DNA of 64,000 bases from Patescibacteria group bacterium (GTDB lineage Bacteria; Patescibacteriota; Minisyncoccia; Minisyncoccales; Staskawiczbacteraceae). Where the stretch lies: assembly GCA_038063015.1 (NCBI GenBank), contig JBBTVX010000001.1, positions 2,772-66,771 of the forward strand. The letters are read 5' to 3'. A model generated the notes under the pieces. The model was not told the origin of the DNA. It did not search any database and saw only the letters and a program-made list of their open reading frames with translations. Position 1 is the stretch's first letter. Each line of letters starts with the position of its first letter. This document shows positions 21,517 to 43,834 of the stretch, piece by piece. A program made the translations under genes and the position numbers.

Positions 21517-22503
21517 TTATTCTATGTCACCGTCTATAAAAAACGGTGTTTCTTTATTATATAGTTTTTTTTCAATAATGTTTCCAATCTTTTGCAAATC
21601 GCCTTTAACCCCCCCTTTTCTGGCGATAAATATCAAATGAGTCCCAAATTGTTCTATGAAATTAATTATGGGCAATGGAATTTTTGAAGTATTTTTATAA
21701 AACTTATTAACTAACATTGAAAGAATAGCTGAGCGCTTGCCACCAATTGAAATATTTTTTCTCCAAGATAGCCCGCCAGGAAAAACATAATAATCCTTAA
21801 AACCTAAATTTTCTAAAAATATTTCTGCGGTTTTTTTTCGCCAAAAAGTCATGTGATATGGCGGCGAATCTCCTCCGCAGCTTTCAATAACGAAATCATC
21901 AATTATTTTTAAAAGCTTATAGTAATATCTGTTTCTGTTGGGCAAGCTCCCGATAAAATAACCGCCATCAGCCAAGTGTCTATATATATTTTGACCGACA
22001 ACTAATGGTTTATCGGCATGCTCCAGAATATCTAAAGCAGAAATGACATTAAAAGCATTAGGCCATTCTTTCGGGATATTAAATTGCTCTCCGCTTGTTA
22101 TGTGAAATTTAACAAAGGGACAATTCTGATTCAGCGCGCTTAAATAACTTTTAGAGACATCAATAGCATAAGTGTCAAATCCTAATCTATGAGCATGAAA
22201 CAAAAATGTTCCCGGACCAGTCCCAATATCTAAAATTGTTCCTTTTTTAATCAAATTTAAAAAAATAACTAAGGAAGAATAAGTAAAGTTCCTTCTTAAG
22301 GACTTTTCCAGCAATCTCTTAAAATCTACTTTTTCATAGGGTTGATTATAATCAGCCAAACTTTTGGCCGGCCAAGAAAACTCTCCCTTGCATTTTAAAC
22401 AGCCGAATAATTTATATCCGGAGATATTTTTTATAAATCTGTTTTCAGCGCTATTGCAAATCGGACAAGTAATATTAAATTTTGAAAAATTTTCCTCTTT
22501 CAT
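21517..22503 (-). CDS. Class I SAM methyltransferase with N-terminal zinc ribbon
   Basis: CPICNS...CLKC then ILDIGTGPGTF. Start set at ATG 22503 because the track start 22521 is a TTG. Confidence 0.7.
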   Translation of the reverse strand: MKEENFSKFNITCPICNSAENRFIKNISGYKLFGCLKCKGEFSWPAKSLADYNQPYEKVDFKRLLEKSLRRNFTYSSLVIFLNLIKKGTILDIGTGPGTFLFHAHRLGFDTYAIDVSKSYLSALNQNCPFVKFHITSGEQFNIPKEWPNAFNVISALDILEHADKPLVVGQNIYRHLADGGYFIGSLPNRNRYYYKLLKIIDDFVIESCGGDSPPYHMTFWRKKTAEIFLENLGFKDYYVFPGGLSWRKNISIGGKRSAILSMLVNKFYKNTSKIPLPIINFIEQFGTHLIFIARKGGVKGDLQKIGNIIEKKLYNKETPFFIDGDIE

Positions 22504-23536
22504 CTTGATATATTTCGTCAAAATAACGAATTAACCGGGTGCCCCATTTTATTTTTGGCTTTTTCCAACTTTCTCCTATGACGTTTTTTATTGCCAAACG
22601 CACAAGGTCAACGCCAGCCGCAACGCTAAGAAGCGCCGCGCCGTGAATTCTAGAATTTGCTTCTAATGCCCTCGGAACGCCTTTTTCGTCTTTTATAAAT
22701 TGTATTCCTACTATTGTGCTAAGATTAAGGCTGGCAACTATCTTTTCAGAATATTTTATAATTTCTTTTTCTTTGACGACCTGCCCTAAAAAACTAGCCC
22801 CTAAAAGGATTTTATCTCTTGTTCTTGGAATAACAATTTGAGCTTGACCATTATTGGCTAAAATATCAACGCTATACTCCTTACCGGATAAAAATTGCAT
22901 CACCAAAATTTCCGGGAAATCTTTGGCTTCTTTTAAAATTAAACAAATTTCAGAAAAGCCAGCCATAACGCTTTCTGGATGGTCTTTTAAAAGAGAATGC
23001 AACCGATTGTTTTTTGATGACAGAACCCTAAATCCTCTGCTTCCGCTGGAAATTGTAGGCTTGAAACAAACTGCCTTCTCGGGATAACCCAATTGAAAAA
23101 CAGCCCTCCGAAAATCTTTATAATTTTTGACCTTGATAAAATCCGGAACAGGGATTCCTTTTTCTTTGCAAAATACAAAAAACCTTTCTTTGTCTTCCGC
23201 AATTTGTATGCTTTCTAAAGATGATAATAAAACCAACGTGCCTATTTTTTCAAATTTATCTTTATTGCTGGCAATTGAAATAAGCTCCCTTGGATCAATT
23301 GGAATTAAGATTATAACTTTTTCTTTTTTGCAAATTCTTAAAAGATCATCTACATAGTTCTTGTCTTCTGGCTGGGAAACAAAATACCCTTTATCAATAA
23401 AAGAAAAACCCATCGTCTCTCTCTCGGAGGAGGTGCCTATAATCCTAAATCCTTTCCCCAGCCGTTTAAGATATCGTCCAAAGCTTGGGAATCCCGATCC
23501 GGATGCCGAGGTTACGAGTATGGTTTTTTTACTCAT
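22475..23536 (-). CDS. ATP-grasp ligase (carbamoyl-phosphate-synthase-like ATP-binding domain)
   Basis: 353 aa with an ATP-grasp layout: KPTISSGSRGFRVL, a QFLSGKEYSVD-type segment, and EANSRIHG near the C-terminus. Confidence 0.65.
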   Translation of the reverse strand: MSKKTILVTSASGSGFPSFGRYLKRLGKGFRIIGTSSERETMGFSFIDKGYFVSQPEDKNYVDDLLRICKKEKVIILIPIDPRELISIASNKDKFEKIGTLVLLSSLESIQIAEDKERFFVFCKEKGIPVPDFIKVKNYKDFRRAVFQLGYPEKAVCFKPTISSGSRGFRVLSSKNNRLHSLLKDHPESVMAGFSEICLILKEAKDFPEILVMQFLSGKEYSVDILANNGQAQIVIPRTRDKILLGASFLGQVVKEKEIIKYSEKIVASLNLSTIVGIQFIKDEKGVPRALEANSRIHGAALLSVAAGVDLVRLAIKNVIGESWKKPKIKWGTRLIRYFDEIYQDERGKFFKI

Positions 23537-25950: not shown

Positions 25951-27241
25951 ATCTTTTTAACTCTGCAATATTCTCCTCAATTTTTTTAACAGCTTCAATG
26001 AATAAATCAATGTCTTTTTTTGTCTGAGGCGGATGGCAAATAGTTGCTATTAAAAGCTCTTTTTCAGACATTCTTTCCGCAACGGGACAAATTCCTTTTT
26101 TGTAACTAATATTATGAGGATATTCTTTAGAAATAAAGGGAAATTTACAATTAGGATACATTTGCTGTTTTTGATAAACCGGCATTAAATAAACCGGATC
26201 TTCGCACCCTATCACGAGCGGAAATCCTTCGGCTTTCATTGCATTTACAAAAGTTTGTCTTTTAATATTAATTTTTTCTGATAAAAATCTGAAACCATAA
26301 CCATAATAAACATGAATGCTATTTTTAAAAACCGAAGGAGGAATCAGCCATTTGAATTGCGAAAGTTGTTTGCTTAAATAATCGGCAAGCATTGTTCTTG
26401 GTTTATTTAGTTTATCCATTTTTTTAAACTGTTCTATGGCAATTGCCGCCTGAATTTCAGTTAAACGAAAATTGTTTCCCAAAATTGGTTCGTAATTTTT
26501 TTTGCTATGACCTGATTTGCATAAATCATTGATAACCGCTTCTCCATGGTTTCTAATAAGTTGAGCCCTAAAAGCATATTTTTTATTATTAGTAACCAAT
26601 GCTCCTCCTTCTCCGCATTGGATGATTTTATGAACATTAAAGCTAAAAACGCCTATGTCGCCGATCGTACCGGTAAATTTACCGTTATATGTTGCTCCGG
26701 CTGATTGAGCATTGTCTTCAATAATTTTTAATTTATATTTTTTTGCTATTTTTAAAATAGGATTATAATTTGCCGAACCGCCAAGCATATTAACAGCCAA
26801 AATTGCTTTGGTTTTATCGTTAATATTTTTTTCAATGCTTTCGGGGTCAAGGCAAAAGCTATTTTCTTCTATGTCGGCAAAAACTGGCAATGCGTTATTA
26901 AAAAGAATAGCCGAAGCAGTGGCTGTCATGGTATAGGGCGAGGTAATTACTTCATCTCCGGGACCAATTCCTAAAGCTCCTACTGCTGCCTGCAGGGCAG
27001 TGGTGGCGGAATTAAAACTAACAGCATATTTAACCTTAAAATGCTTGCAAATCCTTGTTTCTAACTCTTTTACATATTTGCCACCCAAAAAATAACTGCC
27101 GGCCCTGCCGACAAATCCGGAAAGAATTCTCTCTTTTACTGCTTTAAGCGCAGCCCTCTCTTCCTCTTTGCCAATAAAATTATATTGAGGCAAAGGTTTT
27201 TTTATTACCGGCCTTCCGCCGAATAAAGCAAGTTTTTTCAT
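25934..27241 (-). CDS. DegT/DnrJ/EryC1/StrS-family PLP-dependent sugar aminotransferase/dehydratase
   Basis: 435 aa with FNSATTALQAAV, the SFNVHKII Lys motif and NFRLTEIQAAIAIEQ. Confidence 0.8.
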   Translation of the reverse strand: MKKLALFGGRPVIKKPLPQYNFIGKEEERAALKAVKERILSGFVGRAGSYFLGGKYVKELETRICKHFKVKYAVSFNSATTALQAAVGALGIGPGDEVITSPYTMTATASAILFNNALPVFADIEENSFCLDPESIEKNINDKTKAILAVNMLGGSANYNPILKIAKKYKLKIIEDNAQSAGATYNGKFTGTIGDIGVFSFNVHKIIQCGEGGALVTNNKKYAFRAQLIRNHGEAVINDLCKSGHSKKNYEPILGNNFRLTEIQAAIAIEQFKKMDKLNKPRTMLADYLSKQLSQFKWLIPPSVFKNSIHVYYGYGFRFLSEKINIKRQTFVNAMKAEGFPLVIGCEDPVYLMPVYQKQQMYPNCKFPFISKEYPHNISYKKGICPVAERMSEKELLIATICHPPQTKKDIDLFIEAVKKIEENIAELKRYEKKI

Positions 27242-27253
27242 AATTTTATAATT

Positions 27254-27955
27254 TTATGTTTTAACTCCGCTTTTAATAATAGATAAAGATTTATCTCCTT
27301 CATTAAAAACTAAATCAACCGCTGATAAATAGGGAACAAATTCTCCCCAAAGTTGAGAATATTCCGGATGTTTATAATCTTGAAATTTTATTATAATACC
27401 TTCTTTTTGGAATAGGGATTTATCCAAAATCTCTTCTGCTCCCTTGGCGTCGTATAAACAAGTTATTCCTTGGTTCTTGCATAAATTTATAACTTTTTCT
27501 GTTTTTTCCATGTTTTCGTCTTTTAAATTAAGTTTTGAAGAAAAAATAATCTTTGTTTTAATTCCTAAAATATCGCAAACTAATTTTATTAAATCCGTAT
27601 TTAAATCCTTTAATAAAACATATTTTTTAGAATAAATTTTTTCAAACAGGATTTTATGTTTTTCAAAATGCGGGGATTTTTTATAAGACAGCATTATTGT
27701 TTTCCAGTGGTTTTCTAAATGGTTTCCCTGCGAGTAAGATATTTTAATTTCAGATATCCGTGTTTTTTGCGACGCTTTCTCAACCGGAACGGTTAAATAA
27801 GTTTCTCCATTGGCTGTTTTAATTCTGTTTCTGTTTTGCCAGGACTTCCTTTCAAATTGAACGTGGTCAAAAACAACAAAAACATCTGAAGAATCAATCA
27901 TTTCAAAATATCCGAGCCATGGCAAATAAGTTGGTTGCAATATTGTTCCTTTCAT
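27254..27955 (-). CDS. WbqC-family protein
   Basis: ILQPTYLPWLGYFEMIDSSDVFVVFDHVQFERKSWQNRNRI is the hallmark WbqC N-terminus. Confidence 0.8.
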   Translation of the reverse strand: MKGTILQPTYLPWLGYFEMIDSSDVFVVFDHVQFERKSWQNRNRIKTANGETYLTVPVEKASQKTRISEIKISYSQGNHLENHWKTIMLSYKKSPHFEKHKILFEKIYSKKYVLLKDLNTDLIKLVCDILGIKTKIIFSSKLNLKDENMEKTEKVINLCKNQGITCLYDAKGAEEILDKSLFQKEGIIIKFQDYKHPEYSQLWGEFVPYLSAVDLVFNEGDKSLSIIKSGVKT

Positions 27956-32078: not shown

Positions 32079-33137
32079 CTAACTTTTAGCGACTAAACTC
32101 CAATCAAGAGGAGTGCCGCGCGTTATATCTGCCGAAGCTTTTCGCCCTAAAATTTCAGGCAGAAATTTGGGAGCAAGACCATACCCGGGGCGAATAGACC
32201 CGATATTTTCTCTGCTGAATTCTTCTCCTGCCTTTATGTCGCATACCGCAAACAAAGACCTCTTCCCTGCCATATTGGCTAACTCACTTTTTAATACACC
32301 GTATTGGACTTTGCCAATAGCTTTTTCCGCTTCTCTGACTGATTTGACCAGCTGCCTTAGCTCTTCTGGCTCTATGGAAAAAGAAGAATCCGGTCCCCCA
32401 TCAGACCTTTTCAAAGTAAAATGCTTTTCAATTATGCAGACTCCAAAAGCGACAGATTCCGCAGACATGGTAATGCCAAGGCTGTGGTCTGACAACCCTG
32501 AAACAATATTAAATCTTTCTTTTATGTCGGGTATTGTAGCTAAATTCATATCTTCTGGCTTTGCAGGATAACTGCTTACGCAATGTAAGAGCGCGATATC
32601 CTTGGTTCCGTTTTCCCGCAATGTGGAAATAGCAAGCTCTATTTCTTCTAAGTTTGCCATTCCTTTTGATATTATAACCGGCTTTCCTGTTTTAGCTATT
32701 TTCACAAGAAACTCAATATCATTTGTTTCAAAAGAAGATATTTTATAAGCCGGGACATCCATTTTTTCCAAGAAATCAACTGCGGTTGCGTCGTAAGCAG
32801 TAGAAAAAATAATAATTCCGCAATCATCTGCTTTTTTTTTAAGTTCAGGATACCATTCCCATGACATATATGCTGTTTTGTAAAGGTCGTACAGCGTTTT
32901 TCCATCCCAATCAGGATTGGCATCTTTGACAACAAAACTGTCTTCTTTGCAATCAATGGTAAGGGTGTCTGGCGTATAAGTCTGCAGTTTTATGGCATCT
33001 GCTCCTGCTTCTGCGGCAGCTTTGATTATTTCTTTTGCTCTTTCCAAATTTTGATTATGGTTGGCTGACATTTCAGCAATAATAAAAACTGGTTCTCCTT
33101 CGCCTATCCATTTGTTGGAAATCTTAATTTTTTGCAT
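32079..33137 (-). CDS. pseI: Nonulosonic acid synthase (NeuB family), most likely pseudaminic acid synthase
   Basis: FIIAEMSANHNQNLERAKEIIKAAAEAGADAIKLQTY, SDHSLG, and a C-terminal SAF/antifreeze-like domain. The Pse assignment rests on the pseB/pseC context. Confidence 0.75.
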   Translation of the reverse strand: MQKIKISNKWIGEGEPVFIIAEMSANHNQNLERAKEIIKAAAEAGADAIKLQTYTPDTLTIDCKEDSFVVKDANPDWDGKTLYDLYKTAYMSWEWYPELKKKADDCGIIIFSTAYDATAVDFLEKMDVPAYKISSFETNDIEFLVKIAKTGKPVIISKGMANLEEIELAISTLRENGTKDIALLHCVSSYPAKPEDMNLATIPDIKERFNIVSGLSDHSLGITMSAESVAFGVCIIEKHFTLKRSDGGPDSSFSIEPEELRQLVKSVREAEKAIGKVQYGVLKSELANMAGKRSLFAVCDIKAGEEFSRENIGSIRPGYGLAPKFLPEILGRKASADITRGTPLDWSLVAKS

Positions 33138-33153
33138 AAAAATTGTAATTTTT

Positions 33154-33837
33154 TTATTTTTTAACCATAATAATCCAGTCGGAATTTTTATTTTTTAAAT
33201 TATCAAAAGTAGTTTCTGTTTTTTCAATGACAATCTCTTCAAACTTGCTAAAAACTTTATTTATATCTCCTTTATTCAAAAAGCGCATAATCATATCTTT
33301 TTCGTTTGTTTCTGAAATATTTAAGACAAATGTGTTTTTTTCTATTTCTTTTCCCTTGCCAAATCTATAATCATCGGCGCTTCTGGTAAAAATAAACGCC
33401 TTTCTTCCCTTCTTTAAAATCCTATAAACTTCATCTACTGATTTTTGATAGCCCTCGCTATCATTATAATAAAAAACGCCGTAAGAAATTACTCCGTCAA
33501 AAAAATTATCTTTAAACGGCTGATTCTCCATGCTGGTATTTTTGAGCGTAGCCGTTAATTTTTTTTCTTGAAGCCGTTTTTTTGTAACATTTAAACCTGT
33601 TCCTGAAATGTCTGTAGCATAAGTTTGAAATCCTTCTTTAGCCAAAAAAACAGTATGAACGCCTGCCCCGCATCCTAAATCCAATATTTTGAACCGGCTC
33701 CTTTCTTTTAAATCTTTGGGGAATTGACTAAATACAAACCTGACCACATGGTCGTTTGGATATTTGGGCTGGAATCTTTCTTCTGAATGCAAATCTTCCC
33801 ATTTGGTTTTCATTGCAACGTTTAAATTATTTTTCAT
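33154..33837 (-). CDS. Class I SAM methyltransferase
   Basis: ILDLGCGAGVHTVFLAKEGF. Start set at ATG 33837 because the track start 33846 is a TTG. Confidence 0.75.
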   Translation of the reverse strand: MKNNLNVAMKTKWEDLHSEERFQPKYPNDHVVRFVFSQFPKDLKERSRFKILDLGCGAGVHTVFLAKEGFQTYATDISGTGLNVTKKRLQEKKLTATLKNTSMENQPFKDNFFDGVISYGVFYYNDSEGYQKSVDEVYRILKKGRKAFIFTRSADDYRFGKGKEIEKNTFVLNISETNEKDMIMRFLNKGDINKVFSKFEEIVIEKTETTFDNLKNKNSDWIIMVKK

Positions 33838-35068
33838 TTTTAACAAGTTTAATTTCTTTTAATTTATTTACAAAATCTAAAACATCGTTAAACTTCATAT
33901 CCAATTCTTCCGCTATGTCAAATACAGTTTTATCTCCCTCAAGATTCAGCATAATTTTTTCAATATTCTGGTTTAATTCTAAATTTTCTCTCCAATCCAC
34001 CCAAAAGCCGTAGCCCGATAAAAATATCGGCCCTTTGAAATTTCTCTTAGGCGCAAAATCCCTGTCAATAATGTTTAATATTTCTAAAATCAAATCCCTT
34101 GATTTTTCCAATCTTTGTTCTGAAATAATGGCGGGATTATCGTCTGACGTATGATATTCGGGGTAAGGGTATTTGCTGATTGAAATCATTGGAATATTAA
34201 CGCCCGGGCCGTTAAAAGCAATTTCATCATTTGCCACAACTGTCCTAAAAGCTCCCTCTGTGAATTTTTTAAGTTCTCTTTTCATCACATATCTGGCGAT
34301 TCTGTCTATGCGCGCGTCGCCCTGTTTTGTCAGCTGCAGGGCGTAAATATCATCGCTTCCAAGCATTTCAAGAAAAATTCCGCATTCAATTTTTGAAATT
34401 AAATCTTCATTTTGGCTCAAATAAGCTATTGACCCTATGGTTTCCGGGACAAATAAAAATTTATATGTGTAGTAATTATTCTTCTTGCTCATTGCTTTGG
34501 CAAGAGCAACTAAGACTGAAACTCCGGCCAAATCATCATTCGCCTGCCCTGGATGGCAAAGGTGAGCGGCCAAAATAATTATTTTATCTGTTTTTCCTTT
34601 TATTGTATAATCTCCGACTTTCAAATTTCCTTTTTCAAATTTAGAATCAATAAAAACTTTGTATTTGTCTTTTGTAAATTCTTTTAATTTATTATCTTGA
34701 ATGCAAAACCCCCAATCTTTTTGATAATATTTAAACTCGAAAGGAACAGCGTCTGGTCTTTCTGGATTTGTGTGTAAATGCTGAAATAGCTCCTCCTTGC
34801 TTACAATTTTATCAATTGGCAAAGAATAAGAAACAATATGCAGGGGGTGGTCTTTTAAATTCAGCATCCTTTTACCGTCTAAATCTTCAATAAAAGCGCT
34901 GCTTACAGTCCATTTTTCCGGAACAATCCATGTCCAGCATTTTGTTCCCGTGGGAATTTTATGAATTTTTAAAGGAATTATTTTTGAAATATATTCCAAT
35001 GATTCGTCAAATCCGTCAGAGACAATATCCCTTCTTTTAAGCCACAAATCATTAATTAATTTCATCAT
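33827..35068 (-). CDS. DUF4910/DUF2172 aminopeptidase-like (M28-fold) protein with C-terminal winged-helix domain
   Basis: IHKIPTGTKCWTWIVPEKWTV and the AHLCHPGQANDDLAGV metal-site-like motif match the polysaccharide-cluster DUF4910 family. It has an ATGA overlap with the upstream gene. Confidence 0.65.
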   Translation of the reverse strand: MMKLINDLWLKRRDIVSDGFDESLEYISKIIPLKIHKIPTGTKCWTWIVPEKWTVSSAFIEDLDGKRMLNLKDHPLHIVSYSLPIDKIVSKEELFQHLHTNPERPDAVPFEFKYYQKDWGFCIQDNKLKEFTKDKYKVFIDSKFEKGNLKVGDYTIKGKTDKIIILAAHLCHPGQANDDLAGVSVLVALAKAMSKKNNYYTYKFLFVPETIGSIAYLSQNEDLISKIECGIFLEMLGSDDIYALQLTKQGDARIDRIARYVMKRELKKFTEGAFRTVVANDEIAFNGPGVNIPMISISKYPYPEYHTSDDNPAIISEQRLEKSRDLILEILNIIDRDFAPKRNFKGPIFLSGYGFWVDWRENLELNQNIEKIMLNLEGDKTVFDIAEELDMKFNDVLDFVNKLKEIKLVKNEK

Positions 35069-35877
35069 ATTTTTGTATTCGTTTTAATAAAACAAGTTGG
35101 ATCATTTTTAAACATTTTTATACCTTCTCGACAAATGTCGCCTATTATAGCAACGCTTATTTTAGCGCAACCAAGGGGCAATTTTTTAAGCAAACCGCTG
35201 TCTAAAAGGTTTTTTTCAATTTTACTAAAATCAGGAATTGCGCTTTCGTCTAATGGTCTAACATAATATTCATATTCATCATTATATACTTTATTTTTAA
35301 TTTTAATCTTTCCCTTAAATTTCTTGGTGTATCTATAAGAAACTCCTATCTTTTCCTCGATATAATGAATCTGTGTGCAGACGAAATAATCAACCCCGAA
35401 TATAATATATTTACTATCTCTAATATTCGCAAGTTTATCATATATTGAACCTTTTCCAAAACTGTTTTTGCTAAGATTGCTAGTTAATTCTTCGGCTCTT
35501 TTTCCAATGGCGGCAACTGAAAATATCGGATGAATGCTTCTATAAGCGTCCTTTCTTTTACGCAATTCTTCAGTGAATAATCCCACTGTTGACGGCGTGT
35601 TATCTGGGTCATAAATTTCATTATTGCAAAAAGAGTATGTAAATGTGGGGACAATCAAAGTTCCTCCTTTTCCTATAGTTTTCAAAAATGCTTCTATAAA
35701 AACATTAGCGAATTCGGTCTTGTCGACGATATCGCCTAATTTACCGAATTTTGACAGGTCGGCGTGGACCATCGCCACATCTCCTTTTTTAATTCCGGAT
35801 TTCTTGATAGTTTTGACTATATCTTGAAAAACAAATCCTTTTTGTCCGCATTTAAATATGATTTTTTCTTTCTTCAT
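35065..35877 (-). CDS. AAC(3)-fold (Antibiotic_NAT) N-acyltransferase, probable amino-sugar N-acyltransferase
   Basis: GDVAMVHADLSKFG and GGTLIVPTFTYSF are the AAC(3)-family signature. The gene sits between the ACP and DUF4910 genes. Confidence 0.7.
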   Translation of the reverse strand: MKKEKIIFKCGQKGFVFQDIVKTIKKSGIKKGDVAMVHADLSKFGKLGDIVDKTEFANVFIEAFLKTIGKGGTLIVPTFTYSFCNNEIYDPDNTPSTVGLFTEELRKRKDAYRSIHPIFSVAAIGKRAEELTSNLSKNSFGKGSIYDKLANIRDSKYIIFGVDYFVCTQIHYIEEKIGVSYRYTKKFKGKIKIKNKVYNDEYEYYVRPLDESAIPDFSKIEKNLLDSGLLKKLPLGCAKISVAIIGDICREGIKMFKNDPTCFIKTNTKI

Positions 35878-36110
35878 AATTCTATGCCTTTTGAACGAAG
35901 CGTATTTTTAATATCGCCTAAAGATTTGACCTTCAACACTTCATTCATGTTAAAAGATACTTTAAACTGCTTTTCCAATTCAGCAATAAGCAATAAATAA
36001 TTCATAGAATCCCAATTGGGAATTCCTTCTACCGTCAGGGAATCTTTAATTTTGTCCGGCGTTAATTTAAAAATATCAAAAATTATTTTATTAAATTTTT
36101 CCATTTTCAT
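35874..36110 (-). CDS. Acyl carrier protein
   Basis: About 78 aa. MKMEKFNKIIFDIF...EGIPNWDSMNYLLLIAELE carries the DSM phosphopantetheine-Ser motif. Start taken at ATG 36110 (or 36104). The longer track ORF overlaps the FkbH gene. Confidence 0.7.
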   Translation of the reverse strand: MKMEKFNKIIFDIFKLTPDKIKDSLTVEGIPNWDSMNYLLLIAELEKQFKVSFNMNEVLKVKSLGDIKNTLRSKGIEL

Positions 36111-37161
36111 TTGATAATAAGTTTGTGGCCACCCAATATGGCGAATCAATAATATCATCAATTGGCACCGGATTCTCTTTAAAGTATTTTTCCAAAAAGT
36201 CTTGGGCTGGTTTGTTCTTTTCAGTTTGGACAAATGTTATTGATAAATTTTCAGCCTGGTTATCTTTGGCGATTTTTGCGATAGCTGCCAAAAATGCTTC
36301 TTCAACGCCTCGCCCGATAACTCTGCAGCTCATTAAAAATTGATCAACATGCCATAACTCAGCGCCCTCTTTTACAACAGCAAAGCTAATTATTCCGTAA
36401 TCGCCAAAACAATCCGTTAATCTGCCGTAAAATATTCGATAGTCTTTGTTATTCATAAAATCTGCGATGTCTTTTTCTGACAACTCATATTTGTTAAAAT
36501 TGAATTGATTGGTCTTGCCGGTAAGCTGGGCTAAGCGCGCCAATTGAGACGGATCGTCTATAAATATCTGCAATTCCAACCCCAAACTTTTTAAAAACTC
36601 TTTCTGGTTGTTAAAAGATTTCTCAGATTCGCGACGCAATCTTTCAGTTGTATAAAAATTCCCCCTCATTTTGTCTTCATCTGTCAGGGCGGCTAAATCA
36701 AAATATGGAAGGCCAATTAAAAACTTTGTATAATCTGAAGGATTAGATGGCATTTCTGGAGTTTCAACTTCCGACAAAATTGCTTTGACCAGCGCTCTAT
36801 TTACCGGGTCATCATCTAAAAATACCATTGAATCAAGGCCGATATTTATTTCTTTTGCCAATTCTTTTAAATTGCTGGCCTTGTCATTCCAATTAATTCG
36901 CGCAGCTGCAAAATTATTTTCTCTCAAAATCATATTTGGGTGAGTTCTAATGACTCTTATGGCATCCTCGTAATTATTACGGCTGTTAATGGCTAAAATT
37001 ACTCCCTTATTATGTAAATCTAAAAGAGCTTGCTGAAAAGCAACAAAACCCGCTCCCGGTCCGGCAAGGGAGAGTTTTATGCCGTTAAAGCCGTCCTCTC
37101 CCACAATACCGCCCCAAAGAGTGTTATCAAGATCTAATACTATGCATTTTTTAGCGTTCAT
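36091..37161 (-). CDS. FkbH-like HAD-IIIC phosphatase/acyl-loading protein
   Basis: CIVLDLDNTLWGGIVGEDG (HAD-IIIC motif I), LAINSRNN, VFLDDDPVNR, and a C-terminal GNAT-like half. This is the FkbH-domain architecture. Confidence 0.75.
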   Translation of the reverse strand: MNAKKCIVLDLDNTLWGGIVGEDGFNGIKLSLAGPGAGFVAFQQALLDLHNKGVILAINSRNNYEDAIRVIRTHPNMILRENNFAAARINWNDKASNLKELAKEINIGLDSMVFLDDDPVNRALVKAILSEVETPEMPSNPSDYTKFLIGLPYFDLAALTDEDKMRGNFYTTERLRRESEKSFNNQKEFLKSLGLELQIFIDDPSQLARLAQLTGKTNQFNFNKYELSEKDIADFMNNKDYRIFYGRLTDCFGDYGIISFAVVKEGAELWHVDQFLMSCRVIGRGVEEAFLAAIAKIAKDNQAENLSITFVQTEKNKPAQDFLEKYFKENPVPIDDIIDSPYWVATNLLSNENGKI

Positions 37162-37175
37162 TTTTTACCAACTTT

Positions 37176-37541
37176 TTACTTTTTGAAAGTAATGCATACC
37201 GCCTGGACGATTGATTTGGTATGCGAAATGCTAATTATTGATTTATATTTCTTTTCCATTATCTTGTTTAAAAATTTAACCTTAGGCGCGCCGTTTTTAT
37301 CGTTTGTTATTTCTATCTCGTTAAAAGCGATATTGTCTCTAATTGTCTTTTTTACCGCCTCTTTAGCGACAAACCTTGCGGCGAAATGAGAAGAAGGATT
37401 CGGCTTAGACAGAGAATATTTTTTTTCTTTCCGGGTATAAATTCTATCAAAAAAACTTCTGTTTTTTTCCGGGTCTAATTTGGCAAATCTATCAATATTT
37501 TCCATATCTAAACCGACGCCGATGTTATTTATCATTTTCAT
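37176..37541 (-). CDS. acpS: Holo-ACP synthase (4'-phosphopantetheinyl transferase, AcpS type)
   Basis: 121 aa with IGVGLDMENIDRF, FAARFVAKEAVKK and ISISHT. It has an ATGA overlap with the upstream gene. Confidence 0.8.
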   Translation of the reverse strand: MKMINNIGVGLDMENIDRFAKLDPEKNRSFFDRIYTRKEKKYSLSKPNPSSHFAARFVAKEAVKKTIRDNIAFNEIEITNDKNGAPKVKFLNKIMEKKYKSIISISHTKSIVQAVCITFKK

Positions 37542-38278
37542 AAAACAATATATGATATATCCGGTTCGTAATAAAAATTTTTAATCGTATGTTTTTTTAA
37601 ATCTAATTCTTCCATTAAGGCGACTGTTTCCCCCGGCCATTTGGGATTATTTATTTCATCAAAAACTAAAATTGATCCGGCCGCCATTCTTGGTAAAAAC
37701 ATTTTTAAAGCCTCTTTAGTGGGCTTGTAAATATCGAAGTCCAAATATAATAAAGATATTACAAGATGCTGATTTTTTTCAAGAAATTCCGGTCCGGTTT
37801 TCAAAAAATCCCCTTTAACTAATTTAATTTTACTGATATGGGAAAGAAATCGGTTTGAATCATATAAATCTATTGCTTTTTTAAGTTCGTCATAGGAATC
37901 GGCGAATATGCCGCCTGTTTTTGCGTCAACATTTTTATTTTCCGCCATGTCTTTAATATCAACGTCGGGAAAACCGGAAAAAGTGTCAAACCCGATAATT
38001 TCTCTATGATAATTTGTCGGTTCATATATTGCCGATAGTTTAGCCCAAGCCATCAATCCGGACCCCCTGAAAACTCCGCATTCCACAATAGAGCCCTTAT
38101 TGTCTAAAATCATCTTAAACAGTTCGTGTTGGGCTAAAAAACGGGAAATCGCCTGCCGTGAAGCATATTTGGGAAAATCATCAACAAGCTCTATGGCTGG
38201 TTTATTTTCTTGGGCAATTAGATTGATTAAGTGCCGGTTTAATTCTTCAGAATAATTTTTTTCTTTTTCTGTTCTCAT
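37538..38278 (-). CDS. TylF/MycF-family SAM-dependent O-methyltransferase (second copy)
   Basis: VECGVFRGSGLM, GFDTFSGFP, LYLDFDIYKPT. Confidence 0.7.
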   Translation of the reverse strand: MRTEKEKNYSEELNRHLINLIAQENKPAIELVDDFPKYASRQAISRFLAQHELFKMILDNKGSIVECGVFRGSGLMAWAKLSAIYEPTNYHREIIGFDTFSGFPDVDIKDMAENKNVDAKTGGIFADSYDELKKAIDLYDSNRFLSHISKIKLVKGDFLKTGPEFLEKNQHLVISLLYLDFDIYKPTKEALKMFLPRMAAGSILVFDEINNPKWPGETVALMEELDLKKHTIKNFYYEPDISYIVL

Positions 38279-39396
38279 ATTATTTTTTTAATTGAATTAA
38301 TAACATATTGAATATCTTTATTAGCCATCTTGGGAAAAAGAGACAAAGTGATTGCTCTTTCATAATATTTTTCAGCTTTTGGGAAATCACCTTTTTTGTA
38401 CCCAAATTCCTTTTTATAAAATGGATGAAGGTGCAAAGGCATATAATGAACCTGCGCGCCGATTCCTTGCTCCTGCAAAGCATCAAATATATTCCTCCTG
38501 GAATGCTCTTGAACTTGAATAGGATATATGTGCCATGCTGATTTTACGTAATCTTTTTCTGTCGGCAATATAATTTCTTTGATATTTTGGAACGCTTTAT
38601 TATATTTAACCGCAATTTCTCTTCTTTTTTTTAAAAATTTATCTATTTTTTTTAACTGGCTTAAGCCCAAGGCGCATTGAAAATCAGTAAGGCGATAATT
38701 ATAACCGATGTCTTTTATTTCATAATACCATTTGCCGTTTTCCGGCTTTTTTATTATTCCGTGATGCCTGAATGTTTTCAATTTTTCGTAAAAATCTTTA
38801 TTGTTTGTCAGTATCATTCCTCCTTCTCCTGTTGTAATATGTTTTACCGGATGAAAACTTAAAATTGTTATATCGGCCAAACTTCCAATTTTCTTTCCTT
38901 TGTATTCTGCCCCTAAAGCGTGGCAGGCGTCTTCTATAACTAACAATTTATATTTCTTGGCGATTTTTAAAATTTTGTCATAATCGCAGGGATGGCCGGC
39001 AAAATCAACTAAAACTATTGCTTTTGTTCTTTTTGTTATTTTTTTCTCAATTTTTTCCGGGTCAATGTTCAAAGTATCTTCTTTAACATCGGAAAAAATC
39101 GGCCTAGCCCCTAAAACCACCATCATGTTGGCGGTGGCGGCAAAAGTTAAAGGAGTAGTTATTATTTCGTCTCTCGCATTAATGCCAGCCACGCTGTATG
39201 CCGAATGGAGGGCGGCTGTTCCCGATGAAACTGCCACTGCGTATTTTGCTCCGCAGTATTTAGCAATTGCCTTTTCAAACTCTTCAACCTTTGGACCCTG
39301 GGTCAGCCAATCGCTTCTTAAAGCTTTCACAACTTCTTTTATATCCTCTTCGTCCACCCATTGGCGGCCATATGAAATTATTGGAATTTTAGCCAT
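38275..39396 (-). CDS. pseC: UDP-4-amino-4,6-dideoxy-N-acetyl-beta-L-altrosamine transaminase-like (PseC-type DegT aminotransferase)
   Basis: IPIISYGRQWVDEEDIKEVVKALRSDWLTQGPKVEEFE, SFHPVKHITTGEGG, YNYRLTDFQCALGLSQL. Start set at ATG 39396 because the track start 39444 is a TTG. Confidence 0.75.
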   Translation of the reverse strand: MAKIPIISYGRQWVDEEDIKEVVKALRSDWLTQGPKVEEFEKAIAKYCGAKYAVAVSSGTAALHSAYSVAGINARDEIITTPLTFAATANMMVVLGARPIFSDVKEDTLNIDPEKIEKKITKRTKAIVLVDFAGHPCDYDKILKIAKKYKLLVIEDACHALGAEYKGKKIGSLADITILSFHPVKHITTGEGGMILTNNKDFYEKLKTFRHHGIIKKPENGKWYYEIKDIGYNYRLTDFQCALGLSQLKKIDKFLKKRREIAVKYNKAFQNIKEIILPTEKDYVKSAWHIYPIQVQEHSRRNIFDALQEQGIGAQVHYMPLHLHPFYKKEFGYKKGDFPKAEKYYERAITLSLFPKMANKDIQYVINSIKKII

Positions 39397-40322
39397 TGCG
39401 TTGTTTTTAATATTCCCTGTTCCAAATTTATTGTTGGTTTCCAATTTAAAACATCTTCTGCTTTGCTTGAATCGGCGCGCATATTCATTACTTCGGCATG
39501 AGGATGATGGTGCTTAATAAACTTTATTTCTATTTTATCGTCGGCTATCTTTTCTGCTAAATCCTTTATTTTCACCTCTATCCCAGAACCGGCATTAAAA
39601 ATCTGTCCAATCGCTTTATCGCTGAAACAGGCTCTGGCAATAAATTCAGCGCAATCTTCTATATAGAAAAAGTCTCTTCCTTGTTCCCCGTCTCCAAAAA
39701 TCTCTAACGGCTCTCCTTTGAGCTTCTTATTAATAAATATGCTCATTACTCCTCCCTCGGAATCGCTCCTTTGATAAGGACCGTAAATGCTAAACGGCCT
39801 TAGAATAACAACCGGTAAATTATATGTTTTAGAATATGACATTACAAGGTTTTCGCCGTTAATTTTACTGGCTGTATACGGACATGAAGCGTAAAGAGCA
39901 TGCTCTTCCGTTATTTTACGGCCCGGTTCGGCTGTTTTATAAACTAAAGCGGAGCTTGCAAAAACCATTTTTACATTATGTTTTCTGCATTGTTCAAGAA
40001 TGTTAAAGGTGCCCAAACAATTGTCATTAAAGCTTTTTTCCGGATTATCAATGCTCTCCTGCACGTCTATTGCCGCGGCAAAATGAATGCATATATCAAA
40101 ATTATTTTTAAAAAGTTCTGAAACTAATTCTTTATCTTTTATATCTCCTATTATAAAATCCTCTAATTTATCTCTAAATTCTTCGATGTTTTTTTCAGAG
40201 CCGTTTGAAAGGTTGTCTAAAATCCAAATTTTATGTCCTTTATTGAGCAGATTTTTCGCAGTCCAACGGCCCATAAAACCCGCTCCTCCTGTTATTAAAA
40301 TATTTTTAACCTTTATATCCAT
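39378..40322 (-). CDS. NAD-dependent nucleotide-sugar epimerase/dehydratase/reductase (extended SDR)
   Basis: ILITGGAGFMG, ASSALVYK, YTASKINGE (YxxxK). Confidence 0.8.
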   Translation of the reverse strand: MDIKVKNILITGGAGFMGRWTAKNLLNKGHKIWILDNLSNGSEKNIEEFRDKLEDFIIGDIKDKELVSELFKNNFDICIHFAAAIDVQESIDNPEKSFNDNCLGTFNILEQCRKHNVKMVFASSALVYKTAEPGRKITEEHALYASCPYTASKINGENLVMSYSKTYNLPVVILRPFSIYGPYQRSDSEGGVMSIFINKKLKGEPLEIFGDGEQGRDFFYIEDCAEFIARACFSDKAIGQIFNAGSGIEVKIKDLAEKIADDKIEIKFIKHHHPHAEVMNMRADSSKAEDVLNWKPTINLEQGILKTTQWLKFQ

Positions 40323-41727
40323 AATCCCACCAATTTACAGGTAAATTATATTTTTGCATTTTATCTTGAACGGCTTTAAAAGCTTTCTTTTTAAATTCCT
40401 CAATTTCTGGAGCTGTAATATCATAGGGCTCGCCAACGCTGGTATTGCAATCATAAAGCTCCCAGTCCTTATGAAATATCCTATATCTAAATTTTTCTGG
40501 ATTCCTGAATATCTCTGTTCCCGGATTTGGAGCTAACAAATTAAACTCTGCTCTTGAATTTTCCACAATTAATTTAAACGACATCATTTCAAGAAGTTTT
40601 TTAAAATTCTTTTTTACTGTGGTAAAAGTGGCGTCGCAACATTTTAAAGCAATATCAAGCGTCTGCTCAAGGGTTTGTTTTGTTTCTCCTGGAAGCCCCA
40701 AAATAAATCCGGCGTGAAACAGCATTTCGTTTCTCTGAAACATTTCGGCGATTTCTAATATCTTAGACACGGTAATAGCCCTCTTGTTAACTTTCAGAAC
40801 TTCGTCCGAACCCGACTCCATTCCTATATAAAGATTGGTACATCCCGCTTCTTTCAATTTTACAAGAATTTCGTCAGTAATGCCGTCTGGCCTTGTTGCT
40901 GCCCGAAATTGTCCAACATTCTTACTTTTTATTAATTCTAAAACTTGTTTTGTGCGGTCCGGAAATAAGCCCATAAATTCGTCCTCATATCTTATCTCAA
41001 GTTTTGGATTTAACGAAAGAGCAAGCTCTAGCTCTTGCGATATTGTATTCGCGGGACGACAGCGAATTCCTCTTCCGTGCACTGACGGCAATTCGCAAAA
41101 AGCGCAATTATGAGGGCACCCTCGCGTACACATTAAAACAACATAGGCATATTTTTTCATATCAAGCATATCATATGCCGGTATAGGTATTTCTTCGGGA
41201 TTTAACAATGGGCCCATCGGATTATCAATAATTTGGCCGTTTTCTCTAAAACTGATGCCTTGTATTTGAGAAAAAGGTTTGCCTTGTGAAAGCTCAAATA
41301 AAGGACGCTCTCCCTCTCCTCTGACAACAACGTCTACCCATGGACACTCATTTAAGGTTTCGTGAGCCATAAATGTAACATGCACGCCCCCAATTACCAC
41401 TATTGTTTTCGGCTCTGCCTCTTTTACCGCTTTGGCTATTTTCGTTGCGGGAATATACGATATTGTTGTTGATGTTATTCCAACAATGTGCGGTTTAGAG
41501 TCGTTAATATAATATTTTACAACCTGTTGTATCTCGTTTATTGAGCGAGAGAGAAGAGATGGTTTTTCATACTGCATCTGTTTTGTGTCCAAAACATCAA
41601 CTTTTACTCCTGCTTTGCGCAGATAGGCCGCTAAATACATAAGCCCCTTGGGAGGAAACTGCGTCAACCAGTTTATATCCCAGGGTCTTTCTGGAAATGG
41701 CGGGTCTATTAATAAAATATTCAACAT
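40306..41727 (-). CDS. Class B (cobalamin-binding domain) radical SAM enzyme
   Basis: N-terminal B12-binding-like region (HIVGITSTT...VVIGGVHVT) and the radical SAM motif CPHNCAFC. Confidence 0.75.
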   Translation of the reverse strand: MLNILLIDPPFPERPWDINWLTQFPPKGLMYLAAYLRKAGVKVDVLDTKQMQYEKPSLLSRSINEIQQVVKYYINDSKPHIVGITSTTISYIPATKIAKAVKEAEPKTIVVIGGVHVTFMAHETLNECPWVDVVVRGEGERPLFELSQGKPFSQIQGISFRENGQIIDNPMGPLLNPEEIPIPAYDMLDMKKYAYVVLMCTRGCPHNCAFCELPSVHGRGIRCRPANTISQELELALSLNPKLEIRYEDEFMGLFPDRTKQVLELIKSKNVGQFRAATRPDGITDEILVKLKEAGCTNLYIGMESGSDEVLKVNKRAITVSKILEIAEMFQRNEMLFHAGFILGLPGETKQTLEQTLDIALKCCDATFTTVKKNFKKLLEMMSFKLIVENSRAEFNLLAPNPGTEIFRNPEKFRYRIFHKDWELYDCNTSVGEPYDITAPEIEEFKKKAFKAVQDKMQKYNLPVNWWDYGYKG

Positions 41728-42728
41728 AAATCTACTTCTGTTTCTAATAATTTATTTATTGCTTCTTGCGATATAAATTTACCCTTATTTGAAGAAACAA
41801 CGGGATTCTCAATAGATTTCATGTCCTGATATTTTACTCTAACTCGCGAATAATCAAGCATTGGAAAAATAACATACATATCATCTGATTCTACCGACCG
41901 GGAAAGCTCTTCTTCTGACATTATGTGTTCATGTATTTTTTCGCCCTCGCCTTTTTCTGTAATAATTGTCTCTGTTTTTTTGCCATTGGCATATCTATTT
42001 GTCATTGCCTCTGCCAAATCAACAACTTTCAATGTTTTCATTTTCCAAACAAAAGTTTCTCCTCCTTTTACAAGCTCAATGGCTTTAAAAATTAAACTTA
42101 CCGCTTCTTGCATTGTAATCACAAAACGGGTCATCTCTTTGTTGGTAATTGTAATGGGAACTCCGTCCTCAATCTGTTTTTTAAAACGAGGGATAACCGA
42201 ACCATTGGACCCTATCACATTTCCAAAACGCACAGAAGCAAACAGTGTTTTTTTATCTCCTTTATAATAATTCGCCGAAGAAATAAGTTTTTCTCCCAAA
42301 AGCTTAGTCATGCCCATTACGCTTAATGGCTGAGCCGCTTTGTCGGTGCTGGAAAAAATTACTTTTTCAACATTTTCATTTCTGGCGCAATCTATAACGT
42401 TCTGTAAACCCTTTATGTTTGTTTTTACTGCTTCAAAAGGATTATATTCACAAGCATATACATGCTTCATTGCCGCTAAATGAACAACGATATCAATTCC
42501 CTCCATTGCAAGTTTTAATCTGTCAAAATCTCTCACGTCGCCAATTAAATAACGCAACCTTTCTTCTCCGATAAAACTATTCTTTAATTTATATATCTCA
42601 TTTTCCGATAAATCAAAAACACGGATAACATTTACATCATGCTTCAACATTTCTTTAATCAGCGCTTTGCCAACCGAACCAGCTCCGCCGGTTACCAATA
42701 TTTTTTTATTTTTTAATTCTTCTTGCAT
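41721..42728 (-). CDS. pseB: UDP-N-acetylglucosamine 4,6-dehydratase (inverting), FlaA1/PseB/CapD-short type
   Basis: ILVTGGAGSVGKAL, YLIGDVRDFDRL, HLAAMKHVYACEYNPFEAVKTNI, STDKAA, MGMTKLLGE, RFGNVIGSNGSVIP. It aligns closely by eye with PseB-type proteins. Confidence 0.8.
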   Translation of the reverse strand: MQEELKNKKILVTGGAGSVGKALIKEMLKHDVNVIRVFDLSENEIYKLKNSFIGEERLRYLIGDVRDFDRLKLAMEGIDIVVHLAAMKHVYACEYNPFEAVKTNIKGLQNVIDCARNENVEKVIFSSTDKAAQPLSVMGMTKLLGEKLISSANYYKGDKKTLFASVRFGNVIGSNGSVIPRFKKQIEDGVPITITNKEMTRFVITMQEAVSLIFKAIELVKGGETFVWKMKTLKVVDLAEAMTNRYANGKKTETIITEKGEGEKIHEHIMSEEELSRSVESDDMYVIFPMLDYSRVRVKYQDMKSIENPVVSSNKGKFISQEAINKLLETEVDLC

Positions 42729-42739: not shown

Positions 42740-43834
42740 TTAGCTTATACAACCCAGTCGCTCAAAGGCGCGAGCCAGCTCTTCTGGTGTCGCCTTATGG
42801 GGAATACGCAGTACGCGACAAGGCGCGCCAGACACTGCCTTCTCCAAAATAACGCGAGCGCGCCAAAAATCAGCTCCGAGGTCTTCTAAACCCAAAGACC
42901 CCATTTCAAAAAGTCGCTTAAGGTCGTTTTCAAGCTCTTGGTAGAGAACAGCAAAAATGCGACGGGCCATCCATGTCCCGTTTTGTTCCTCTATTGAGAA
43001 ATCAGGAACATGACATCTAAGAAGCAATATTGTTTTTGTGACAGATCCTTTTGTTCCCAAACATTTTGCATCAAATATTTGTTCAGCGGGCACAATATCT
43101 ACATAGTCTCGGCGGATAAAAGGAATAAAGGCAATTCTATTGTAAACTCCCTTACTCTTGAGAAATTTATCAATAATCCCCCGGAATGGAACGTTAGCGT
43201 AGAGGTTCCATATAATGGAACGAGTGACGCGTTTTTTCAAACTCATGTGTTTGCGAGAAGCGAATAACTCGGGATAAACCGAACTATGATATTCCTTAAG
43301 CACGAATGCTTTATGAAACGCCAAACACATGCCGGATTCTGTGAGCGCTATCATGTCGTCGCCCAGCAGTTTATACCCTTTTTCTTTTACGAGGAAACCA
43401 GAGAGCGCTGTTTTGCCAACTCCTCCGCAACCTGCTAAAATAGTAACGCCTCCCGCGGGGTTTTGCAGGGCAGCCGCATGGGCGAACGAAATGCCGTTAC
43501 TAATAAAAAGTTGTTGAATAAGACCGGTAAAAGAAAACATGGCATCGGTGTATACGGCGTATCCCGTCGGTTTTTTTTCTATTGCCAAGCGAGAGTCGCG
43601 GTTCGCGCACCACGAATCTCTGCCACCTTCTGAATTTTGGAATATCTCGTTTTCTTGAGGAAAAGAAAACATCTCAAAAGGATTAACCAATATCATCAAG
43701 GGGTTAGAATGGTCTTGTTCAGAACTTTTAAAAGACCCCAACTGCCGATTGATTGATTTCAAAACCCACGGACGAATTTTTGGATTGACGCGCACGGTTA
43801 TAAGATCGTGAATGTGGTATACGTGTTCATTCAT
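42740..43834 (-). CDS. HprK-like P-loop protein (uncharacterised), compositionally atypical
   Basis: LAGCGGVGKTALSG followed by LLGDDMIAL resembles the HPr-kinase C-terminal-domain Walker-A plus GDD arrangement. The N-terminal 130 aa give no call. GC is visibly higher than in neighbouring genes. Confidence 0.4.
   Translation of the reverse strand: MNEHVYHIHDLITVRVNPKIRPWVLKSINRQLGSFKSSEQDHSNPLMILVNPFEMFSFPQENEIFQNSEGGRDSWCANRDSRLAIEKKPTGYAVYTDAMFSFTGLIQQLFISNGISFAHAAALQNPAGGVTILAGCGGVGKTALSGFLVKEKGYKLLGDDMIALTESGMCLAFHKAFVLKEYHSSVYPELFASRKHMSLKKRVTRSIIWNLYANVPFRGIIDKFLKSKGVYNRIAFIPFIRRDYVDIVPAEQIFDAKCLGTKGSVTKTILLLRCHVPDFSIEEQNGTWMARRIFAVLYQELENDLKRLFEMGSLGLEDLGADFWRARVILEKAVSGAPCRVLRIPHKATPEELARAFERLGCIS

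Follow-up and report, generated by a model that had tools for sequence, protein, structure and literature searches.

A probable carrier-protein-dependent N-acyl tailoring cassette between pseC and pseI in a Patescibacteria genome

What do the genes inserted between pseC and pseI in a Patescibacteria genome attach to the sugar made by their neighbours, and to which nitrogen? The stretch analysed here (64 kb of a Patescibacteria group bacterium, assembly GCA_038063015.1, contig JBBTVX010000001.1, positions 2,772 to 66,771; hereafter the window) carries at this site a cassette encoding an acyl carrier protein (ACP), a holo-ACP synthase, an FkbH-type protein, an AAC(3)-fold acyltransferase, a DUF4910 protein and two S-adenosylmethionine (SAM) methyltransferases. 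An initial annotation, made from the sequence alone, had proposed that the AAC(3)-fold enzyme places an ACP-bound glyceroyl group on N7 of pseudaminic acid (Pse), with no role for the DUF4910 protein. Our analysis indicates that the cassette is probably a module for the carrier-protein-dependent N-acyl tailoring of a Pse-type nonulosonic acid, in which the DUF4910 protein may take part and the acyl group would reside on N5.

Open reading frames were called on the 64-kb window and searched against Pfam and NCBIfam profiles with curated cut-offs. Nine genes, all on the minus strand, run from PseC to PseI, and the profile matches agree with the identities and order first assigned to them. Four junctions (PseC/TylF, TylF/AcpS, ACP/AAC(3) and AAC(3)/DUF4910) are ATGA overlaps, where the initial annotation had spoken of several. 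The cassette had been drawn at 33827–38278, a span that encloses its genes except for the downstream methyltransferase (33154–33846), which the same annotation lists. Among the matches listed, the closest protein relatives bear the names Patescibacteria, Parcubacteria or Staskawiczbacteria, which makes an origin in a candidate-phyla-radiation bacterium most likely.

The FkbH-type HAD-IIIC glyceryl transferase/phosphatase (36091–37161, 356 aa) scores 290.4 bits against TIGR01686 (cut-off 146.65) and 70.8 bits against TIGR01681 (cut-off 35.75), and its HAD domain matches PDB entry 3slr at 3e-38. Loss of the catalytic cysteine or aspartates from this protein had been named initially as a point that would tell against acyl loading; both elements are present. 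The HAD DxDxT motif reads D10-L-D12-N-T14 (DLDNT, residues 10–14), and Cys279, which lies in LMSCRVIGRG and which we take to be the catalytic cysteine carrying the (phospho)glyceryl thioester, is invariant across five cassette FkbH proteins and the Campylobacter jejuni protein. The stand-alone ACP (35874–36110, 78 aa) passes the PF00550 cut-off marginally (21.9 bits against 20.8) and has the modifiable serine that had likewise been in question, Ser35, within NWDSM, the D-S-L/M motif expected at the start of helix II. The AcpS-type holo-ACP synthase/phosphopantetheinyl transferase (37176–37541) matches PF01648 at 5e-15 (55.9 bits, cut-off 25) and TIGR00556 with 68.3 bits (cut-off 45.35), while falling slightly under the TIGR00516 cut-off (58.0 against 59.8).

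The AAC(3)-fold (Antibiotic_NAT, LegH-like) N-acyltransferase (35065–35877) matches PF02522 at 4.3e-39 (134.9 bits) and scores under every NCBIfam cut-off for AAC(3) aminoglycoside resistance (best NF033082, 72.8 bits against 270). Judged by these profiles, it shares the fold of the resistance enzymes but is not one of them. Its His171 and Glu174 are invariant in all members compared. The DUF4910/DUF2172/M28-like mono-zinc protein (33827–35068) belongs to the Cj1295/CA_C2195 family, with matches to PF16254 (3e-80, 269 bits), PF09940 (DUF2172; 3e-33, 114 bits), M28 (1e-11) and PDB entry 3k9t (CA_C2195; 1.6e-76). The zinc ligands of 3k9t, His189, Asp195 and His324 (as described in PMC4000134), correspond to His172, Asp178 and His306 of the window protein and are invariant in the alignment. 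At its C-terminus, where some 75 residues are conserved in close relatives, there is a weak match to the HTH_47 winged helix (PF16221; 16.1 bits, cut-off 27.1).

The two methyltransferases flank these genes, a class-I SAM methyltransferase (33154–33846; PF13649 5e-18, PF08241 7e-17) on the PseI side and a TylF-like SAM methyltransferase (37538–38278; PF05711 1.8e-12) on the PseC side. The ends of the set are secure: the PseC aminotransferase (UDP-4-amino-4,6-dideoxy-N-acetyl-beta-L-altrosamine transaminase; 38275–39444) scores 503 bits against TIGR03588 (cut-off 423.5) and is 41–42% identical to C. jejuni PseC, its true start probably being the ATG at 39396, and the Pse synthase PseI (32079–33137) scores 469 bits against TIGR03586 (cut-off 340) and is 45% identical to its C. 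jejuni counterpart.

Only one homologous cassette, that of C. jejuni, has a product linked to it. A di-O-methylglyceroyl-modified Pse on Campylobacter flagellin had been mentioned in the initial annotation; the modification is real and is tied genetically to the DUF4910 homologue Cj1295, which is required for it on the flagellin of C. jejuni 11168 (Hitchen et al. 2010, PMC3068675) and has been described as a DUF2172/M28 protein (PMC6321876). According to PMC3068675, which quotes Logan et al. 2009, and to PMC4975691, the di-O-methylglyceroyl group is on N5, and N7 bears an acetamido or acetamidino group. Hitchen et al. proposed a de-N-acetylation role for Cj1295 (PMC3068675), and cj1302 is an FkbH-domain gene (PMC7099621).

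We reached the Campylobacter loci through the AAC(3) match of C. peloridis; none is among the matches listed in a scan with the DUF4910 alignment. The 11168-type order is PseB, PseC, DUF4910, AAC(3), a 76-aa ACP, a methyltransferase, a glyoxalase-type protein, a 520-aa FkbH-like protein, a FabH-like enzyme and a 73-aa ACP. By sequence comparison, the window cassette and Cj1295–Cj1304 are homologous, with identities of 34% for DUF4910 (E 1e-57), 41% for AAC(3) and 33% for FkbH (Cj1302-type). In both the window and Cj1294–Cj1304, the cassette directly follows pseC and comprises DUF4910, AAC(3)-fold and FkbH-type proteins, a small ACP and a SAM methyltransferase; the C. jejuni FkbH-like protein has the same DxDxT and SCRxxGR motifs, and its cassette ACPs carry EWDSL and NWTSL where the window ACP has NWDSM. 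The window differs in encoding an AcpS of its own as well as a TylF-like methyltransferase, in lacking the FabH-like enzyme, second ACP and glyoxalase-type protein, in its rearranged gene order, and in the absence of the homopolymeric phase-variation tracts reported for Cj1295 and Cj1296. A separate PseH is present in C. jejuni and none in the window, and the hosts are unlike, a Patescibacteria organism as opposed to a flagellated pathogen.

Read alongside the Campylobacter product, the gene set points to the following route. FkbH-family enzymes transfer a glyceryl group from 1,3-bisphosphoglycerate via an S-enzyme intermediate onto a dedicated ACP, and the methoxymalonyl-ACP pathway offers a precedent for O-methylating intermediates while they are bound to the ACP (PMC9057759, PMC7489565). 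In the window, AcpS would, by its family membership, convert the 78-aa ACP into the holo form. The FkbH-type enzyme would load a glyceryl group from 1,3-bisphosphoglycerate onto Cys279, dephosphorylate it at the DxDxT HAD site and pass it to the ACP, as we infer from family membership, conserved residues and the analogy with OzmB. One or both SAM methyltransferases could O-methylate the glyceryl group, on the ACP or after transfer, and the class-I enzyme at 33154–33846 is the candidate glyceroyl O-methylase. The N5 nitrogen derives from the N-acetyl group of UDP-N-acetylglucosamine (UDP-GlcNAc), so a different acyl group at this position needs prior de-N-acetylation. The DUF4910 protein would strip this inherited acetyl group from the later N5 of the nonulosonic acid, and the LegH-like AAC(3)-fold enzyme would re-acylate the freed amine from the phosphopantetheine-bound acyl group, which replaces acetyl-CoA. 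The expected product would be a 5-N-(O-methylated glyceroyl) Pse-type sugar, like that of C. jejuni. A deacetylase-plus-formyltransferase logic at N5 is known for formylated nonulosonic acids (bioRxiv 10.64898/2026.04.20.719630).

The step on which N5 acylation turns is the one given to DUF4910, and its assignment as a sugar de-N-acetylase, for which we put the chances slightly below even, is favoured by the invariant zinc ligands, by the occurrence of the AAC(3)–DUF4910 pair in clusters that have no aminotransferase and by its coexistence with acetyltransferases for the PseH step (the H step). A single profile scan of genome contigs anchored on the DUF4910 alignment gave homologous loci (numbered with the prefix L) with flanks of about 10 kb. 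Our survey used the 53 of 86 loci, among the matches listed, with 5 kb or more of sequence on either side of DUF4910, and the counts that follow are limited to these matches. A separate AAC(3) gene is present in 39 of the 53 loci and is adjacent to DUF4910 in 37 of those 39. In five surveyed loci (eight of the 86 overall) the two are fused in a protein of about 710 aa, which suggests a deacetylase that passes the freed amine on to an acyltransferase; Pfam matches to L028 confirmed this architecture. DUF4910 is thus a constant AAC(3) partner, in place of the bystander of the initial annotation. The fusions occur in L028 (9155–11281), L026, L030, L031, L035, L043, L045 and L086, which are Chloroflexota and one Ozemobacteraceae metagenome-assembled genome (MAG), and some of them lie outside NeuB clusters; the fusion in L028 neighbours a CE4 polysaccharide deacetylase, an inositol-1-phosphate synthase and a class-V aminotransferase.

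The co-occurrence with neuB/pseI that had been suggested as a check was run on DUF4910, and NeuB is encoded in 41 of the 53 loci. AAC(3) and NeuB occur together with no DegT aminotransferase in 29 of the 53. Read gene by gene, one of these loci (L022) encodes a methyltransferase, TauE, a Polysacc_synt_2 dehydratase, an RmlD-type reductase, NeuB, a GT1 glycosyltransferase, an MT24 methyltransferase, AAC(3), DUF4910 and a cytidylyltransferase, beyond which there are glycosyltransferases and sulfotransferases, with no aminotransferase within the locus. On this gene content, the sole nitrogen available in such NeuB loci would be that of the GlcNAc N-acetyl group. The AAC(3)–DUF4910 pair also coexists with NeuD/PglD-type or GNAT acetyltransferases (among others in L001, L004 and L016), and where AAC(3) is missing a hexapeptide acetyltransferase (L006) or a GNAT (L013) directly precedes DUF4910. 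DUF4910 pairs, in all, with three different acyltransferase folds. We had also considered DUF4910 as a substitute for the UDP-sugar hydrolase PseG, and set this aside because it gives no reason for a pairing with three acyltransferase folds.

The AAC(3)-fold enzyme has a relative of assigned function. A C. jejuni protein named at NCBI "N-acetyltransferase LegH [Campylobacter jejuni]" is a PF02522 member encoded directly after Cj1296/7 in the pse-proximal cassette. Cj1298 is LegH (PMC3438082), whose substrate in legionaminic acid synthesis is the nucleoside diphosphate (NDP)-linked 4-amino sugar, which it acetylates (PMC6137143). BLAST gives 39% identity between LegH and the window enzyme (34–37% in a multiple alignment); identity to the Cj1296/7 type is 37%. 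The window enzyme shares with LegH the PF02522 fold and the invariant His171/Glu174 positions, and the substrate of LegH, too, is a nucleotide-linked amino sugar that leads to a nonulosonic acid. LegH was reportedly assayed biochemically in Schoenhofen 2009. The two differ in that LegH is described with acetyl-CoA on the 4-amino group (PMC3438082, PMC6137143) whereas the window enzyme is proposed to use acyl-ACP, and in that the window enzyme is translationally coupled to the ACP and DUF4910. An H-step role for an AAC(3)-fold enzyme is precedented by LegH and is not novel. That Cj1296/7 is switched OFF in C. jejuni producing the di-O-methylglyceroyl sugar (PMC3068675, PMC13130089) was considered as an argument against a role for the AAC(3) fold and was dropped, the intact paralogue Cj1298/LegH being adjacent.

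This kinship is part of the case for the route proposed initially, in which the AAC(3)-fold enzyme replaces PseH and transfers ACP-bound (methyl)glyceroyl to the PseC-made 4-amine, giving a 7-N-glyceroyl-type Pse and leaving DUF4910 some other role. The relationship to Cj1298 joins three further points in its favour: the absence of any PseH-type gene from the 64 kb, the placement of the cassette right behind pseC, and the occurrence of 7-N-glyceroyl Pse in Tannerella forsythia (PMC5378307). T. forsythia, however, has a normal PseH, and no genes are assigned to its glyceroyl group (PMC5378307). The Campylobacter product carries its acyl group on N5 (PMC3068675, PMC4975691); AAC(3) and DUF4910 occur in the 29 NeuB loci that have no aminotransferase; the pair is found beside canonical H-step acetyltransferases, including in the syntenic locus L004; and the near-obligate linkage and fusion of the two genes are left unaccounted for. 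We consider acylation at N7 by this enzyme rather unlikely. What stands of the original proposal is that the fold can perform the H step (LegH, PF02522; PMC3438082); a general replacement of PseH fits poorly with the company the pair keeps, and a 7-N-glyceroyl product runs counter to the one known.

A different division of labour would make the AAC(3)-fold protein a plain acetyl-CoA-dependent H-step acetyltransferase, like LegH, and DUF4910 the transacylase that moves an ACP-bound or other acyl group. In favour of this, LegH is both annotated and employed as an acetyltransferase (PMC3438082, PMC6137143), the majority of AAC(3)-plus-DUF4910 loci among the matches listed have no nearby ACP, Cj1295 by itself gave the C. 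jejuni phenotype (PMC3068675), and transacylation was raised by Das et al. (PMC4000134). Gene organisation argues otherwise: the ATGA coupling joins the ACP to AAC(3) and not to DUF4910, and the thioester-processing MaoC domain is fused to AAC(3) and not to DUF4910. More broadly, the fusions tied to AAC(3) are MaoC–AAC(3), AAC(3)–methyltransferase (L004) and glyoxalase–AAC(3) (L090), and DUF4910, apart from its fusions with AAC(3), is found as methyltransferase–DUF4910 (L090). A His-Asp-His mono-zinc site, moreover, is typical of hydrolases, which counts against a transacylase, and the aminotransferase-free loci would offer an acetyl-CoA N-acetyltransferase no free amine. We judge this arrangement quite improbable.

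De-N-acetylation by DUF4910 followed by AAC(3)-dependent re-acylation at N5, the reading we prefer, has several points weighing against it. The survey consists mostly of related Chloroflexota MAGs, among the matches listed, so that its counts are not independent events, and 10-kb flanks can miss an aminotransferase encoded further off. Methyltransferase types vary between loci, and the exact acyl decoration in the window possibly differs from that of C. jejuni. DUF4910 has none of the canonical M28 co-catalytic residues (Das et al., PMC4000134), so an amidase role would need a non-standard active site. Among relatives of the AAC(3)-fold enzyme LegH alone has been assayed; its donor is acetyl-CoA and its target the 4-amino group, which favours acylation at N7. 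The lack of PseH in the window is left unexplained by acylation at N5. There is no assay of any cassette enzyme in the searchable literature, and every step of the route above is inferred.

The missing PseH has a wider setting. Searches with ten seed proteins found no GNAT, hexapeptide, PseH, PseG or PIG-L homologue in the 64-kb window at E≤10, which upholds the initial statement that no GNAT-type PseH is present. The PseC-derived 4-amine, the later N7, must then be acylated some other way; candidates are the AAC(3)-fold enzyme, a nearby ATP-grasp ligase (22475–23536) and the product of a gene outside the window. In L004, which is syntenic with the window, where the cassette also lies between pseC and pseI and AAC(3) is fused to a methyltransferase, a downstream GNAT gives a weak PseH match (51.9 bits against 93.1). 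At the site of this GNAT the window encodes a HAD extension on the cytidylyltransferase fusion and the ATP-grasp ligase together with a methyltransferase (21517–23536, minus strand); the ligase and methyltransferase may be an alternative means of acylating the second amino group.

Upstream of PseC, a block at 39378–42728 (minus strand; TIGR03589, PF02310 with PF04055, PF01370) encodes a PseB-like 4,6-dehydratase (41721–42728), a B12-binding radical SAM protein (40306–41727) and a short-chain dehydrogenase/reductase (SDR; 39378–40322), the radical SAM gene lying between the other two. The best match of the dehydratase is TIGR03589, with 315 bits and thus below the cut-off of 407.75. The block feeds PseC, and it is highly conserved in Patescibacteria relatives (983 bits in L002, 975 bits in L004). 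Its composition suggests that the 4-keto sugar may undergo radical chemistry, for instance C-methylation; with a radical SAM protein in the block upstream of PseC, the sugar backbone may be other than canonical Pse. In L002 and L003 the TylF methyltransferase follows PseC, away from the ACP cassette, and so the substrate of the TylF-like enzyme may be the sugar in place of the glyceroyl group. Both O-methyltransferases that had been proposed to methylate the glyceroyl group are thus present, but TylF travels with the PseB–radical SAM–SDR–PseC block in these two loci.

The remainder of the cluster leaves room for a target other than a nonulosonic acid, and the cassette could in principle decorate a different amino sugar of the surface-polysaccharide cluster, for example the product of a second or third DegT enzyme. 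Two more DegT enzymes, WbqC, the ATP-grasp ligase and many glycosyltransferases are encoded in the window, and AAC(3)–DUF4910 fusions lie outside NeuB clusters in some Chloroflexota. Set against this are the presence of NeuB in 41 of the 53 surveyed loci, the position of the cassette between pseC and pseI in both the window and L004, and the Campylobacter genetics that link the family to Pse (PMC3068675). We regard such a target as highly improbable.

Several neighbouring genes were recorded in passing. A WbqC-family protein lies beside a DegT aminotransferase (25934–27955, minus strand), and WbqC–DegT pairing, or co-occurrence with the cassette, is also seen in L004, L009 and L091. At 23533–25950 (minus strand) there is an 805-aa three-part fusion with a CTP_transf_3 cytidylyltransferase in the middle, a C-terminal HAD phosphatase and an N-terminal GT-B-like domain with weak matches to Epimerase_2 and BFO_1060; its counterpart in L004 has no HAD part. 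A 364-aa protein (42740–43834, minus strand) with a P-loop-like GCGGVGKT has no family match except a weak one to PEPCK; it follows a small HTH_17 gene at the cluster head, and a similar unannotated gene occupies the same place in L004. Further away, a large multi-pass membrane protein (5163–6725, minus strand) contains, from its translation, an internal Pro/Ala/Thr/Val-rich repeat region, VESPVTVEPSAAAKPSVATKPPATVKPSATVESSVTVKPTATAEPKP. Between 54000 and 60000 the GC content rises to 0.42–0.45 and the GC skew changes sign. An Rfam scan of the whole window found no RNA family.

How widely is the cassette distributed, and which of its parts are fixed? In the Omnitrophota locus L001, the order AcpS, FkbH, radical SAM, ACP, MaoC, AAC(3), DUF4910 lies beside a legionaminic-acid-type cluster with a NeuD/PglD-type acetyltransferase. 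The Patescibacteria loci L002 and L003 have AcpS, FkbH, ACP, AAC(3), a methyltransferase and DUF4910, about 5 kb from the PseB–radical SAM–SDR–PseC–TylF block. L091 encodes FkbH, ACP, the MaoC–AAC(3) fusion, a methyltransferase and DUF4910. L090 encodes AcpS, ACP, an AMP-ligase, LuxE, LuxC, the glyoxalase–AAC(3) fusion and the methyltransferase–DUF4910 fusion, and the Anaerolineales locus L016 has ACP, an amino-acid:carrier-protein ligase, a GNAT, AAC(3) and DUF4910. AcpS accompanies the cassette in L001, L002, L004 and L090. FkbH stands as the loader beside ACP–AAC(3) in the window, L001, L002, L004, L009 and L091; the place is taken by the amino-acid:carrier-protein ligase in L016, by AMP-binding/LuxE proteins in L090 and by AMP-binding and FabH-like proteins in the C. 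jejuni locus L088. With differing loaders beside a constant ACP, AAC(3) and DUF4910, the carrier-protein loader appears to be interchangeable, while the other three stay together.

Two of these loci deserve separate mention. The ligase that follows the ACP in L016 (7310–9992) is aminoacyl-tRNA-synthetase-like (NF005479, 168 bits), which suggests that N-aminoacyl nonulosonic acids could be built on a carrier protein there. L088 (AP028369.1, 1–15000) is a flagellar glycosylation island with three AAC(3)-fold paralogues among ACPs, AMP-ligases and a FabH-like enzyme, and also holds a formyltransferase and PIG-L deacetylase pair; its gene content indicates several putative carrier-protein-dependent acylation routes within one locus.

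Two known systems show what is shared and what is not. CA_C2195 of Clostridium acetobutylicum (PDB 3k9t) is the founding DUF4910 protein, and its structure has been solved (Das et al. 2014, PMC4000134). Its neighbours include an aminosugar N-acetyltransferase, an ACP, a HAD-plus-acetyltransferase-like protein and NeuB/SpsE; Das et al. went no further than to propose a broad part in making modified carbohydrates (PMC4000134). Compared by published description, except for the PDB chain, this locus (CA_C2195–2199) resembles the window in a DUF4910 protein with the same three zinc ligands and in its ACP, N-acetyltransferase and NeuB neighbours, and differs in also holding a Maf-type protein and an ATP-grasp ligase in the neighbourhood. 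In the FkbH/OzmB systems for methoxymalonyl-ACP and tetronates, the short architecture (366 aa for OzmB, 356 aa in the window), the HAD aspartates, the conserved cysteine and the grouping of a dedicated ACP and an O-methyltransferase in one operon (PMC9057759, PMC7489565) are all shared. The window, in contrast, encodes no dehydrogenases for the conversion of glyceryl to hydroxymalonyl, no polyketide synthase and no FabH-type condensing enzyme, and its acyl group is proposed to end as a sugar amide.

The initial view that such a route would be new biochemistry for this lineage does not hold, as C. jejuni has the same module beside pseC, C. acetobutylicum has it too (PMC4000134), and it recurs in several phyla. 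As judged by homology, genome sequences had already revealed the cassette, which is also found in Omnitrophota, other Patescibacteria and marine metagenomes. No new class of system is revealed; the cassette is a further member of a known, biochemically uncharacterised set. As a tentative proposal that we hold somewhat short of even, DUF4910 could be the founder of an unrecognised family of mono-zinc de-N-acetylases that act on nonulosonic acids or on precursors of these and that, with a LegH-like AAC(3) enzyme, would form a general two-enzyme editor of the N5 acyl group, at times fused, served by interchangeable loaders (FkbH, aminoacyl-tRNA-synthetase-like ligases, AMP-ligases/LuxE). Belonging to the same proposal, and held just as tentatively, is the idea that its own AcpS would make the Patescibacteria version self-sufficient.

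The analysis touches two questions that have stood for more than a decade, how di-O-methylglyceroyl-Pse is made and what Cj1295/DUF4910 does (both raised in Hitchen 2010 and Das 2014), and converts them into enzyme assignments that are specific and can be tested. In this view the Campylobacter genes become part of a cross-phylum modular system, with a conserved, sometimes fused AAC(3)–DUF4910 pair and a swappable loader. For the Patescibacteria, the cassette points to investment in an elaborate, self-primed decoration of surface sugars, which bears on the interaction of these small-genome organisms with hosts or phages.

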